A stretch of DNA of 13,814 bases from a virus (IMGVR_UViG_2695420871_000010), one strand, 5' to 3'. Counted from the first letter of the stretch, positions 7,506-9,577 are shown. Numbers and translations: made by a program. The notes: generated by a model not told the origin, from the sequence alone.

Positions 7506-7700
7506 ATGCCAGAGAACAACAGCAGAAAACCGGATAAAAGTGCAACAGTGCACATAGACGCCGGAACTATGGAGAAGCTCGAACGCTATCAGCAGTTCAT
7601 TAAAAGTCATCACCCTGGAATGCCAGTACCCACGAAAGGGCAGATTGCGAGAAGCGCGGTTGAATACTGGTACAGGGCAACGTTAGGAGCCTGGCTATGA
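7506..7700 (+). CDS. Small ribbon-helix-helix-like protein (64 aa) coupled to the protease-capsid gene
   Basis: ATG at 7506 with GGAGG RBS 7 nt upstream; …ATVHIDAGTMEKLERYQQFIKSHHPGMPVPTKGQIARSAVEYWYRA has a strand-helix-helix pattern; TGA stop overlaps the ATG of the next gene (ATGA at 7697-7700). Confidence 0.5.
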   Translation: MPENNSRKPDKSATVHIDAGTMEKLERYQQFIKSHHPGMPVPTKGQIARSAVEYWYRATLGAWL

Positions 7701-9577
7701 AAACATGGTTTTCCATTAAGGCTATGGCTGATGTTGTACATGTACGCATTTATGACGAGATCGGCGGGTACGGTGTAAAAGCATCGGCACTTACTGACGA
7801 GATCAACGCGTGCGGTAATGTGCCTGAAATCCATCTTCGCATCCATTCACCTGGTGGCGACATCTTTGAAGGGCTGGCTATCTATAACGCCCTGAAAAAT
7901 CATCCGGCAAAGAAAATTGTACACATTGAAGGCATGGCGGCTTCTATGGCCTCGTTTATTGCCATGTGTGGCGATCACATCGTTATGCCTGAAAACGCGA
8001 TGATGATGATACATGCCCCCCGTGGTGTTACTGCCGGAGTGTCGGGCGACGTTCGCCGCTTTGCTGACCTGATGGACAAGCTGGGCGACACGATGGCGGA
8101 AACCTACGCCGGAAGAACGGGCAGGAGCAAACAGGAAATCACCGCCATGATGGAGGCGGAAACCTGGATGGATGGCAATGAGTGTAAGGCTAATGGCTTC
8201 GCAGATGAGGTTATACCCGCGATTACAGCAATGGCCAGAATTGAATCAAAACGAATCGGAGATTTTTCGAATATGCCGGAAAATATTAAAAGCATGATCA
8301 GCCAGAAAACTGGCAGCGGAGAACAGGAACGACTCAACGGGATACGTGAATTGTTTGGCACGTTCAATGGAAGATATAACGACCTGGCTATAAGTTGTCT
8401 TGCTGATTCAGGCTGTAGCGTTGAGGATGCACGCGAACGCCTTTTACTCACTATGGGTAAAGAATCGACACCGACAAACAAAACCACCCCCGCAAATCTT
8501 TACTACGCGTACACGGATAACGGCAACATAACCGGCGATGCAATGCGTCAGGGGCTTAATGCGCGTCTGGGACATGAACAGGCAGAACGCGGCAACCCTT
8601 ACGCCATGATGAGCCTTTTCGATATGGCACAGGCATCATTAACCCATCGCGGCATAAGCACAGGCAGCTACAGCACACGCTCGCAGATAGTAAACGCGGC
8701 ATTCACCCACAGCAGCAGCGATTTTACTTATATCCTTGCTGGTGGTGCTGAAAAATCCGTGCTTGCCGGATGGGAACACAGCGGCGAAACGTTCCGCCAG
8801 TGGACGAAAAAAGGTTCATTGTCAAACTTCCATGAGGCACGTCGTGTTGGCCTGAATGGCTTCTCTACATTAAACAAAGTGCCGGAAGGCGCGGAATATA
8901 AATACATCACCACCAGTGACCGTGGCGAACCAATCGCGCTGGCAACTTACGGAAATATTTTCAGCATTACCCGACAGGCGATTATTAACGATGACCTGAA
9001 TCAGTTAACAGTTATCCCACAGGCAATGGGGCGAGCAGCCGCCAGAACGGTGGGTAATCTGGTTCATCTGGTGCTGACAGGAAACACAAAGCTTTCTGAC
9101 GGTATACCGCTGTTCAGCAAAAAACACGGAAATGATATTGATAACGGAGTCAGCACTACAGGGCTTGGCATTGCACGCCGTGCAATGCGCACACAGGGGG
9201 ATGAAAACGGTGAGGTGCTGAATATTGTGCCAAAATTCCTTCTTGTTCCTGCGGCTCTGGAAGACAGAGCGTTGCAAATGGTTAACTCAACCACGCCTTT
9301 CGGTGCCGATACAAACAGTGGTTCATATAACCCGTACCACAAACAACTGGATATTATTGTCGATCCCCGCCTTGATGAAGTCAGTGATAAGCAATGGTAC
9401 ATGCTTTCAGCACAGGGAACGGACACAATTGAGGTGGCTTATCTTGACGGTAATGACGAGCCTTACCTTGAGCAGCAGGAGGGCTTTATTGTTGACGGTG
9501 TGGCCTGGAAGGTCCGCATTGATGCTGGCGTTGCTGCTCTGGATTATCGCGGAATGGTCAGAGCGATTTCTTCATGA
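7697..9577 (+). CDS. Fusion of ClpP-like prohead serine protease and HK97-fold major capsid protein (626 aa)
   Basis: N-terminal ~190 aa: ClpP/S14-like motifs (…IHSPGGDIFEGLAIYNAL…, GMAASMASF around the putative catalytic Ser, MMIHAP around the His). C-terminal ~350 aa: phage major-capsid-like sequence (…GEPIALATYGNIFSITRQAIINDDLNQLTVIPQAMGRAAARTVGN…WYMLSAQGTDTIEVAYLDGNDEPYLEQQEGFIVDGVAWKVRIDAGVAALDYRGMVRA). A linker of ~80 aa could act as scaffold. Confidence 0.8.
   Translation: MKTWFSIKAMADVVHVRIYDEIGGYGVKASALTDEINACGNVPEIHLRIHSPGGDIFEGLAIYNALKNHPAKKIVHIEGMAASMASFIAMCGDHIVMPENAMMMIHAPRGVTAGVSGDVRRFADLMDKLGDTMAETYAGRTGRSKQEITAMMEAETWMDGNECKANGFADEVIPAITAMARIESKRIGDFSNMPENIKSMISQKTGSGEQERLNGIRELFGTFNGRYNDLAISCLADSGCSVEDARERLLLTMGKESTPTNKTTPANLYYAYTDNGNITGDAMRQGLNARLGHEQAERGNPYAMMSLFDMAQASLTHRGISTGSYSTRSQIVNAAFTHSSSDFTYILAGGAEKSVLAGWEHSGETFRQWTKKGSLSNFHEARRVGLNGFSTLNKVPEGAEYKYITTSDRGEPIALATYGNIFSITRQAIINDDLNQLTVIPQAMGRAAARTVGNLVHLVLTGNTKLSDGIPLFSKKHGNDIDNGVSTTGLGIARRAMRTQGDENGEVLNIVPKFLLVPAALEDRALQMVNSTTPFGADTNSGSYNPYHKQLDIIVDPRLDEVSDKQWYMLSAQGTDTIEVAYLDGNDEPYLEQQEGFIVDGVAWKVRIDAGVAALDYRGMVRAISS

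Follow-up and report, generated by a model that had tools for sequence, protein, structure and literature searches.

In phages of the Gifsy-2 type, one ORF reportedly codes for three parts, a protease of the ClpP type, a scaffold-like centre and the major capsid protein, and has the portal gene on one side and the cement gene on the other. Among satellites, the Gram-negative PICI EcCICFT073 has on board a capsid gene and a decoration gene; deletion of the capsid or the decoration gene left interference in place, and all packaged DNA was phage-sized; its authors concluded that full-size heads are used (PMC6092414). Ccm of SaPIbov5 shares 24% identity with the capsid protein of its helper, and its delta domain has 87 residues where the helper's has 128, a difference of 41; it occupies the pentamers of small isometric capsids and cannot form capsids alone (Hawkins et al. 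2021, PMC8569155). The cf-PICIs are defined by having genes of their own for every protein that building and filling their capsids requires (Alqurainy et al., bioRxiv 10.1101/2022.09.08.507074). Mageeney et al. 2023 (PMC10111431) mention PICIs "bearing a CLP_protease gene" as well as helper-embedded PICIs, and already frame the late zone as helper genes captured by PICIs. In the portion of that paper used here, the gene appears only as a Pfam label, and the satellite clade, linker deletion and RHH partner described below go unmentioned.

Here we analysed a virus-derived stretch of 13,814 nucleotides (IMGVR_UViG_2695420871_000010; the window), which carries an island whose only virion gene is such a protease-capsid fusion. 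What is possibly new is the existence of a satellite clade of these fusions, with a shared linker deletion, retained catalytic Ser and His under purifying selection, and a constant RHH-like gene upstream.

Identity and layout of the island

To judge PICI membership, we applied the criteria that Fillol-Salom et al. 2018 set out for Gram-negative PICIs. On sequence grounds, the island is a ~10.1-kb Gram-negative PICI integrated between cspD and clpS, with 7052-10117 as its "late zone". Its features, in window coordinates, are:

550..560, + strand: attL core ATGATAGTTAT, left island end (repeat count against shuffles)
746..1984, + strand: tyrosine integrase (Pfam Phage_integrase and Arm-DNA-bind_3)
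2307..2603, + strand: AlpA-family regulator/excisionase (Pfam Phage_AlpA, E=2e-16; annotation of relatives)
4253..6058, + strand: primase/helicase, the PICI pri-rep (Pfam D5_N, DUF5906 and Pox_D5; phrog_864)
6084..6260, no strand assigned: putative replication origin, direct and inverted ACTGTTCACC iterons just 3' of pri
6615..7037, + strand: single-strand DNA-binding protein (Pfam SSB, E=4e-16)
7052..7180, + strand: cos-like site A, with cosN-like 12-mer GGGCGGGCGGTT at 7108-7119, a cosQ-like block before it and a cosB-like region after it
7506..7700, + strand: 64-aa RHH-like protein, translationally coupled to the capsid gene
7697..8236, + strand: ClpP-like prohead protease domain, about residues 1-180 (Pfam CLP_protease, PDB ClpP matches)
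8237..8506, + strand: helical linker or scaffold-like region, bearing the satellite-specific deletion near residue 208
8507..9577, + strand: major capsid protein domain and stop, residues ~271-626 (Phage_capsid_4, Mu-like_gpT)
9582..9710, + strand: cos-like site B, with cosN-like GGGCGGGTCGG at 9638-9648 (repeat D1, alignment with phage cos regions, regex matches)
9836..10117, + strand: 93-aa conserved last island gene (PHROG match, phrog_1561)
10655..10665, + strand: attR core ATGATAGTTAT, right island end (repeat count against shuffles)

The att core occurs exactly twice in the window, and two copies were found in 0 of 200 shuffles; from core to core the island unit measures 10,105 bp, and, as in other PICIs, its two ends at a specific att site are marked by short direct repeats. 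The left copy sits amid longer, imperfect direct repeats (D2, D3 and D6 of the repeat scan), and the same core is listed for EcCIIHE3034 and EcCI18098 at cspD-clpS (PMC6092414 Table S1; Fillol-Salom et al. 2018). At the 5' end, int is followed by alpA, both on the + strand, and the genes are mostly co-oriented. The integrase is 93-97% identical to integrases of cspD-clpS islands, and the true alpA start is probably internal to the ORF given above, relatives being annotated at 210 nt. The island has its own primase/replication initiator with an origin directly 3', putatively assigned from its iterons (repeat families D4, D12, I1, I7-I9, I15 and I19) and placed in agreement with the PICI ori as described (PMC6092414). 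It falls in the small size class of PICIs (~8-12 kb) without lysis genes or most virion genes, and its two cos-like sites would provide for the hijack of helper packaging. Like other PICIs, the island has a primase-helicase of the D5/P4-alpha type. Sister islands, EcCIIHE3034 among them, have the last gene at 77-89% identity, with dN/dS of ~0.23-0.29; a PDB sequence search and Pfam (E<=10) returned nothing informative for its 93-aa product. Rfam detected no regulatory RNA inside the island, the sole gathering-level matches being 2 CRISPR repeats outside it.

Pfam and PHROG profiles together with six-frame tblastn gave no match to terminase, portal, tail or lysis families in the island, and by profile 0 of the 10 main island ORFs match a terminase, portal or tail family. 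When the mEp460 proteins TerS, TerL, portal, cement, head-tail and major tail were run against all six frames of the window by tblastn, they yielded chance-level matches only (E>0.03), as did the DUF1441 protein of sister islands (E>0.03), and an Rpp/TerS-like gene was not found in this island copy by the same approach. The cement/decoration gene present in helper-type phages is absent from the island. These ORF profiles and translated searches agree with the first-pass annotation, which had described a satellite-like island with a single virion gene. Its premise that PICIs have no capsid gene was wrong, since 21 of 29 reference Gram-negative PICIs carry one (PMC10111431). Because capsid genes are thus known in PICIs, and because the island shares the att site and backbone of the published EcCIIHE3034, the architecture is not the novel intermediate strategy that had been proposed. 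Its late zone belongs to an already catalogued E. coli satellite type, whose members commonly have one captured capsid gene.

EcCIIHE3034 and EcCI18098 share the insertion site, att core and size class of the island (10.1 kb here vs 10.5-10.8 kb). The gene order shared with EcCIIHE3034 runs int, alpA, YlcI/YnfO-like (minus strand), Icd-like, DUF4222, primase, 81-aa protein, SSB, late zone and 93-aa gene. Int, AlpA, the 81-aa protein and SSB are 88-97% identical between the two (Int 97%, AlpA 97%, SSB 90%), whereas the primase is only 47% identical. Both have a small gene of RHH pattern ahead of the capsid gene. The late zone of EcCIIHE3034 encodes a lambda-E-type capsid protein, a decoration protein, a hypothetical protein and an annotated small terminase, whereas the island has the ClpP/capsid fusion instead. 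EcCIIHE3034 has one mEp460-type and one lambda-type cos site; the island, in contrast, has two of the CP-1639 type and is without a TerS-like gene.

With EcCICFT073 the island shares a four-zone layout, two late-zone cos sites, a lone capsid gene (accompanied there by decoration) and a lambdoid cos helper, here a probable one (PMC6092414, PMC6739421). EcCICFT073 differs in its lambda-E-type capsid gene and its att site, and it has RppA, which redirects helper TerS to island cos1, whereas the window is without an Rpp/TerS-like gene. The likeness to cf-PICIs consists in a satellite-owned capsid protein and protease; cf-PICIs steal only tails, whereas the island has only the capsid/protease gene. 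Assignment as a capsid-forming PICI was rejected, only the protease/capsid fusion having been found by profiles and six-frame tblastn, without terminase, portal or connector. A P4-like satellite was likewise rejected, the sid, psu and delta families being unmatched by the 10 main ORFs in general Pfam and PHROG scans.

The protease-capsid fusion and its small partner

The fusion ORF (7697-9577, + strand) encodes 626 aa in the order ClpP protease, linker and major capsid protein, and the joining of protease and capsid domains in one polypeptide, as first annotated, is borne out by CLP_protease, Phage_capsid_4 and phrog_133. Pfam CLP_protease covers residues 44-173 (E=8e-33), and this part matches solved ClpP chains in the PDB with E down to 4e-15. 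Catalytic Ser83 (the S of AASMA; codon 7943-7945) and His106 (the H of MMIH; codon 8012-8014) are both present; they align with the Ser and His of ClpP and are conserved in 15 of 15 copies compared, from satellites and phages. At the ClpP Asp position, the fusion and all relatives have Glu, in alignments read by eye.

Phage_capsid_4 covers residues 331-623 with E=2e-54. Mu-like_gpT also matches this part (E=1.4e-9), and phrog_133 matches the fusion with E=2.9e-272, its best-scoring stretch being residues 207-622. Over its full length the fusion is 48-51% identical to the capsid genes of Gifsy-2, mEp460 and CP-1639, and its capsid domain is 46-59% identical to phage copies and 67-87% to other satellite copies. 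On these profiles and this homology to phage capsid genes, the C-terminal domain is assigned a capsid fold. A PDB sequence search matched no solved capsid chain to the domain, and an AlphaFold2 model of the whole fusion, from an 11-sequence alignment, reached a pLDDT of 44.

The fusion thus has the N-terminal ClpP-type protease with catalytic residues and the C-terminal capsid domain of the Gifsy-2 type, but differs from it in its scaffold region and its neighbours. A linker segment of ~35-40 aa is absent from 10 of 10 satellite copies and present in 15 of 15 phage or prophage copies in the alignment; an RHH-like gene precedes the fusion instead of the portal gene, and there is no adjacent cement gene. 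The linker deletion is a single inherited event, which marks the satellite clade and is no proof of adaptation. In the tree, satellite-borne fusions are monophyletic (bootstrap 100) and lie apart from all prophage copies. Values of dN/dS are 0.05-0.19 over protease, linker and capsid, the same range as in phage copies, with 0.12-0.18 for the linker and 0.01-0.18 for the whole capsid domain. As judged from these comparisons, the fusion is under purifying selection and retains the catalytic Ser and His.

The small ORF upstream starts with ATG at 7506, 7 nt past a GGAGG at 7494-7498, and its TGA overlaps the fusion ATG as ATGA (7697-7700), by which overlap the two genes are taken to be translationally coupled. 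Sequence-profile searches (Pfam, E<=10; PDB, with the sequence alone and as a profile) gave no match for the 64-aa protein. Its predicted structure (pLDDT 83) has an extended N-terminus and two helices, and with this strand-helix-helix pattern the protein looks like RHH proteins, in keeping with the coupled, RHH-like gene of the first-pass annotation. An RHH-like gene always precedes satellite-borne fusions and is always co-inherited with them. No clear sigma-70-like promoter was found by promoter scan on the + strand upstream of the small gene and cassette; the scan returned fewer sites overall than in shuffles.

cos-like sites, candidate helpers and relatives

The fusion module is flanked by the two cos-like sites, which lie 2.5 kb apart and form direct repeat D1 of the repeat scan; site B directly follows the terminator-like hairpin of the fusion gene. 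The late-zone cassette reads cos site, RHH-like gene, ClpP-protease/scaffold/capsid fusion, second cos site and 93-aa gene. Site A shares 79-89% identity with the sequence that immediately precedes TerS in 1720a-02, CP-1639, Stx2 phages and mEp460, and can be aligned with lambda cosQ/cosN. Site B, too, resembles the cos of lambdoid phages of the CP-1639/Stx/mEp460/Gifsy-2 type. The cosN-like spacing is 12 and 11 nt in the two island copies and 10 nt in CP-1639.

The cos-matching phages (CP-1639, Stx phages and mEp460) are the same ones that give the best phage match to the capsid fusion, and phages of the CP-1639, Stx, mEp460 and Gifsy-2 type have a DUF1441-type small terminase together with the same tripartite capsid gene. 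Since the cos match thus leads to lambdoid phages with this capsid gene, we infer that the helper is a lambdoid phage of the CP-1639/Stx/mEp460/Gifsy-2 type. Sister islands encode, directly after cos B, a DUF1441 protein 65% identical to mEp460 TerS. For this protein and the "terminase small subunit" of EcCIIHE3034, a PDB sequence search was uninformative and gave no link to solved Rpp/TerS structures.

The two main variants of the island occur in about 143 and 187 of 5426 complete E. coli genomes (about 6%), with relatives in six other genera, which makes seven genera in total; this conservation speaks against a merely deleted copy, as the first-pass annotation had considered. The same small-gene and fusion cassette (~90% nucleotide identity) is found in a tRNA-Ile-adjacent PICI (SF-468) and in a PICI of O157:H7 strain H6437, inserted in the TerL gene of a prophage with DUF1441-TerS, portal, fusion and cement genes. 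In H6437 the satellite fusion is 51.5% identical to that of the co-resident helper. In Klebsiella, a related copy of the cassette is carried by PICIs inserted in the helper's own fusion gene, probably the site named C:CLP_protease:110 in PMC10111431; the PICIs described there differ from the window island, which is chromosomal (cspD-clpS) and has a different integrase. In Kluyvera, the cassette lies between portal and cement genes.

Possible roles of the fusion

What the capsid genes carried by most Gram-negative PICIs do is a modest-sized question, for which the sole knockout so far (EcCICFT073) was without phenotype. The cassette described here is a good test case: it is compact, with one gene for protease, scaffold and shell, diverged from its helpers, under selection, and present in ~6% of complete E. 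coli genomes.

Our best explanation combines a PICI late-zone cassette, a CP-1639-type helper, cos mimicry, a Ccm-like head bias and an RHH partner that binds DNA, and as a whole we regard it as an even call. Helper induction would lead to excision of the island and its replication from its own origin, and the helper terminase would then cut and package the island at its cos site. Mimicry of the helper cos is proposed as the packaging route because this copy is without a TerS/Rpp-like gene. With less confidence, the fusion may be made and then self-cleaved by its own protease domain, and its capsid domain may join helper procapsid assembly with helper portal and capsid subunits, which would tilt the making of heads towards the satellite, as happens with Ccm of SaPIbov5. 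The tether between protease and scaffold, being shortened, might be a satellite-specific adaptation, and the RHH-like partner might bind DNA, for example to regulate the cassette or helper late genes. Several observations count against this explanation: the EcCICFT073 deletions and phage-sized packaged DNA, the missing cement/decoration gene, a cosN-like spacing that varies between the copies and from CP-1639, and the lack of a clear sigma-70 promoter before the small gene.

Ccm is, by functional analogy and not by sequence homology, the best mechanistic analogue of the fusion. Each belongs to a cos-packaged satellite, is homologous to the HK97-type capsid protein of the helper and has a shorter scaffold part. 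Ccm differs in its Gram-positive host, unrelated sequence and lack of a fused protease, and its function is demonstrated, whereas that of the fusion is proposed from sequence. The fusion may plausibly act on helper head assembly much as Ccm does. Only tentatively do we go further and suggest that the satellite fusion clade, with its shortened tether and its persistence in at least seven enterobacterial genera, and its coupled RHH-like gene are the Gram-negative counterpart of Ccm, in which an active protease-capsid protein co-assembles with or replaces helper subunits to give heads for one or two 10-kb copies and the RHH protein tunes late expression of helper or cassette. If so, Gram-negative PICIs would have gained capsid redirection, which is so far undemonstrated for E. 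coli PICIs.

The fusion could instead be a captured spare part, a helper late gene taken along with cos that substitutes for or tops up the capsid supply, for example as a backup where helper-embedded relatives disrupt a late gene of the helper, and is dispensable for transfer and interference in a chromosomal island such as this. We consider this possible, though it is not what we would expect. Removing capsid or decoration from EcCICFT073 made no difference when interference was assayed (PMC6092414), and PMC10111431 proposes late-gene capture and a "backup intact copy" whose redundancy is called not essential. The late zone is also modular, the shared backbone being combined in IHE3034 with a set of lambda-type capsid, decoration and TerS-like genes, and some helper-embedded PICIs with the cassette interrupt the fusion gene of the helper itself. 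However, the satellite copies form a deep monophyletic clade with only 46-60% identity to phage copies in the capsid domain, which argues that they are not recent captures, and the 51.5% identity to the co-resident helper protein does not suit a simple replacement copy. Purifying selection as strong as in phages across all three domains, and a satellite-specific RHH partner that is always co-inherited, also weigh against a spare part. Should the fusion have no measurable effect, this view of PICI late zones would be strengthened.

Pure interference, in which the fusion or its protease domain disturbs helper procapsid maturation and lowers helper yield while adding nothing to satellite particles, appears unlikely. 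Helper interference is typical of PICIs (PMC6092414, PMC6739421), the catalytic residues of the protease are conserved, and 51.5% identity to the helper protein is divergent enough for defective mixed assemblies. Selection on the whole capsid domain and on C-terminal assembly-relevant motifs nevertheless exceeds what a poison would need, and since the satellite itself relies on helper heads, indiscriminate poisoning would harm it too.

Somewhat more doubtful still is the main idea of the first-pass annotation, a smaller shell built from the island's own capsid protein alone, with portal, terminase and tails from the helper, as a step between classical PICIs and cf-PICIs. The protease, scaffold-like and capsid domains are all in the fusion, its scaffold tether is shortened, and the 10.1-kb unit has roughly one quarter the length of a helper genome of 44.5 kb. 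In Gifsy-2-type phages, one gene is said to cover the head-shell functions. However, portal, head-tail connector and cement genes are absent from the island, and cos sites 2.5 kb apart complicate unit-length packaging. Furthermore, the related EcCICFT073 is packaged as phage-sized DNA, Ccm alone forms no capsids (PMC8569155), and cf-PICIs, by definition, encode all capsid-making and filling proteins (bioRxiv 10.1101/2022.09.08.507074).

A decayed prophage that kept its capsid gene after loss of terminase, portal and tail genes might be suspected from the tail-gene fragments adjoining the fusion in the ZH142 relative and from the TerS-like gene of sister islands, but was rejected as highly improbable, given intact ORFs, an architecture conserved in hundreds of genomes of seven genera, an int-alpA-pri-ori backbone in place of a prophage one, a satellite clade distinct from every prophage copy, and no trace of TerS, TerL or portal in six frames (tblastn, window).

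Should the fusion redirect head assembly or compete with it, the yield of these helper-type phages, and their transfer, would be affected. Copies of the cassette are present in Shiga-toxin strains, some of them inside prophages with the capsid and terminase type of known Stx phages.

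Island backbone and late zone

The window holds E. coli-like chromosome in the order cspD, 10.1-kb insert, clpS and clpA. The island encodes, in order, an integrase, AlpA, an Icd-like protein, a DUF4222 protein and a D5-type primase-helicase, followed by the iterons, genes for an 81-aa protein and SSB, the cassette, and a gene for a 93-aa protein. The main features are as follows.

550 and 10655: ATGATAGTTAT, insert boundaries
6084-6260: ACTGTTCACC iterons, ori-like, 3' of the primase-helicase gene
7052-7180: cos-like copy A of a 129-nt direct repeat
7506-7700: 64-aa RHH-like gene
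7697-9577: 626-aa protease-capsid fusion gene
Fusion residues 44-173: CLP_protease (Pfam, E=8e-33)
Fusion residues 331-623: Phage_capsid_4 (Pfam, E=2e-54)
9582-9710: cos-like copy B of the direct repeat

The PICI backbone, att site, ori-like iterons and helper-type cos sites are established from the sequence. Two PICIs, EcCIIHE3034 and EcCI18098, are listed for the cspD-clpS site by Fillol-Salom et al. 2018 (Table S1, PMC6092414), and their att core is identical to that of the window. EcCIIHE3034 shares a common backbone with the window (identity of Int 97%, AlpA 97% and SSB 90%) but differs in its late zone, which contains genes for a lambda-type capsid, a decoration protein, a hypothetical protein and an annotated small terminase, along with a small ORF. 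With the same att core, site and backbone and another late zone, the window island is, on these comparisons, a member of the catalogued Gram-negative PICI family whose late zone has been exchanged. The first-pass annotation had read a lone capsid gene in a satellite as an intermediate strategy dependent on a helper. That interpretation stands in part; its premise of novelty does not, since 21 of the 29 reference Gram-negative PICIs carry capsid genes, which are dispensable for transfer (Mageeney et al. 2023, PMC10111431). The element is a late-zone variant of an already known PICI kind.

A Ser/Cys-rich 271-aa ORF at 2614-3429 (+), without a family match in the annotation of relatives, looks spurious; on its opposite strand, at about 2954-3151 (-), lies a YlcI/YnfO-family gene as annotated in sister islands (related islands with a DUF1441, TerS-like gene). 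Divergent from the main operon, this gene may encode a regulator. Beyond the island, directly past clpA, two CRISPR-DR4 direct repeats (13599-13626 and 13659-13686) each score 50 bits against a gathering score of 35, consistent with the small type I-F-associated array that E. coli has near clpA.

The protease-capsid fusion and its small partner

Both ORFs proposed for the cassette were found in place. The 64-aa ORF starts with the ATG at 7506, 7 nt past GGAGG, and an ATGA overlap at 7697-7700 combines its stop with the start of the 626-aa ORF. The two main Pfam matches bear out the proposed union of a ClpP protease and a capsid domain in one polypeptide, the C-terminal part matching a capsid family; a further Pfam match is Mu-like gpT. 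The fusion also matched phrog_133 (PHROG, E=2.9e-272) and solved ClpP chains, and its RefSeq homologues are labelled 'ClpP-like prohead protease/major capsid protein fusion protein'. Full-length identity is 48-51% to the capsid genes of CP-1639, Stx phages, mEp460, cdtI and Gifsy-2. The Gifsy-2 gene is reportedly the 'tripartite' protease/scaffold/capsid gene characterised by experiment in Effantin et al. 2010 (a study cited in PMC8538268). Profile scans of the ten main ORFs and six-frame tblastn detected no terminase, portal, cement or tail gene in the island, which for terminase, portal and tail genes agrees with the first-pass annotation.

In each of the nine full-length satellite copies examined, the ORF directly before the capsid gene encodes a homologue of the small protein (in DUF1441-type islands this ORF is unannotated); tblastn found no homologue beside phage or prophage copies of the fusion. 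In EcCIIHE3034, a distant analogue with the same RHH pattern comes before the lambda-type capsid gene. About 100 members of the family were detected across Enterobacterales, and no Pfam domain was found in them. The predicted structure of the small protein (pLDDT 83) has an extended N-terminus and two helices, which gives the term 'RHH-like' model-level support.

Between copy A and the small gene (7268-7384), the minus strand has a promoter-like site at 7384-7356 and, at 7304-7268, two terminator-like hairpins that overlap. The equivalent place in sister islands holds an annotated 57-aa minus-strand hypothetical gene (9804-9977 of sister island L002), and the signals could be those of a short antisense transcript or small ORF.

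Distribution and descent of the satellite fusion

At about 90% nucleotide identity, the window-type small gene and fusion occur in 143 of 5426 complete E. coli genomes; the sister type with DUF1441 occurs in another 187 of them. A scan at species level, with one genome per species, yielded 79 loci. Those matching the query at 59% identity or more came from Kluyvera, Trabulsiella, Yersinia, Pectobacterium, Phytobacter and Moellerella, and had no adjacent TerL or portal gene, except for one prophage-embedded PICI; the small gene was directly upstream in all but a truncated Phytobacter copy, and most had PICI backbone genes. Full-length matches at most 51% identical lay mostly in TerS-TerL-portal-fusion-cement prophage arrays. 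Many database copies of the fusion (P0034-P0075) are 'partial' where a contig of a draft assembly ends; breakage of short-read assemblies by satellite and helper copies, or by the duplicated cos regions, would produce this.

The cassette is physically associated with prophages of the DUF1441-TerS/fusion-capsid type. In O157:H7 H6437, a PICI with the window-type cassette (L090 1766-11653) interrupts TerL in a prophage that also carries DUF1441 TerS, portal, its own fusion capsid, cement and tail genes; the satellite protein is 51.5% identical to that of this co-resident helper. Related Klebsiella PICIs (L092-L094, about 2136-12525) split the helper's own ClpP/capsid fusion gene, and a cassette-bearing Kluyvera PICI (L010, about 3714-12600) lies between the portal and cement genes of a helper prophage. 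Helper genes split in this way are each annotated as two fragments. In SF-468 the cassette is in a PICI adjoining a tRNA-Ile gene. Such configurations are already on record in Mageeney et al. [quoted passage not shown]

Satellite-borne fusions form one clade (bootstrap 100/100) outside every prophage copy sampled. A segment of 35-40 residues directly after the protease domain, consisting of a Pro/Ala/Gln-rich tether and the start of a helix, is missing in 10 of 10 satellite copies and kept in 15 of 15 phage copies. This deletion is one inherited event that defines the clade, and no proof of adaptation. Among satellite copies dN/dS is 0.05-0.19 in all three parts (protease, linker and capsid), a range shared by phage copies, and catalytic Ser83 and His106 are invariant in the copies compared, establishing an intact, selected protease-capsid gene in a satellite-specific form. 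Against its closest relative (L001 10685-12574), the window fusion has a dS of 0.06 over the protease part and of 0.63 over the capsid part; this tenfold gap suggests recombination within the gene, which would make it a mosaic.

Cos-like sites, likely helpers and a possible role of the fusion

The repeats flanking the cassette are 71% identical to each other. Copy A is 79-89% identical to a segment that immediately precedes the small-terminase gene of 1720a-02, CP-1639, Stx2 phages and mEp460, the same phages that give the best phage match to the capsid fusion. Both copies can be aligned with lambda cosQ-cosN; between ACG and CGCGG, lambda has GGGCGGCGACCT and the window copies have GGGCGGGCGGTT and GGGCGGGTCGG. 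The late zone of EcCICFT073 likewise has two cos sites (PMC6739421).

In sister islands, copy B is directly followed by a DUF1441 protein 65% identical to mEp460 TerS. Six-frame tblastn found no DUF1441 gene or remnant in the window, where 141 nt (9694-9834) cleanly replace the 626 nt with the DUF1441 gene in L002 (12102-12727); judged from this alignment, the cassette is discretely polymorphic in whether it has the TerS-like gene. Because the match of copy A to CP-1639 extends through the region downstream of cosN, we infer that the window copy relies on cos mimicry and not on a TerS/Rpp-type redirector. In the papers examined, no description was found of helper-type cos sites without a TerS/Rpp gene, as in the window copy, of satellite fusions as a monophyletic group sharing a linker deletion, of the selection acting on them, or of the RHH-like gene that always accompanies them.

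The helpers would be DUF1441-TerS/fusion-capsid phages, whose terminase would package the island at the mimicked cos site. By analogy with Ccm of SaPIbov5, the fusion may process itself and enter helper head assembly; Ccm shares 24% identity with the capsid protein of its helper, has a delta domain 41 residues shorter, is located in pentamers and yields small heads (PMC8569155). Against such a role, deletion of the EcCICFT073 capsid gene left lambda interference unrelieved, and EcCICFT073 DNA was packaged at phage size (PMC6092414). These results make a captured, largely redundant late gene the main rival to a Ccm-like fusion. An autonomously built shell, or pure poisoning of helper assembly, is less likely. 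A prophage remnant that had merely lost its terminase and portal genes is excluded, given the separate clade and the close relatives that lack them.

EcCIIHE3034 (L008) has two unlike cos types, at about 7050-7200 and about 9470-9600. The copy that follows SSB belongs to the mEp460/CP-1639 kind (GGGCGGGAGG), and the copy ahead of the small-terminase-like gene, with GGGCGGCGACCT, resembles lambda, flanks included; two helper families might therefore package this one island.
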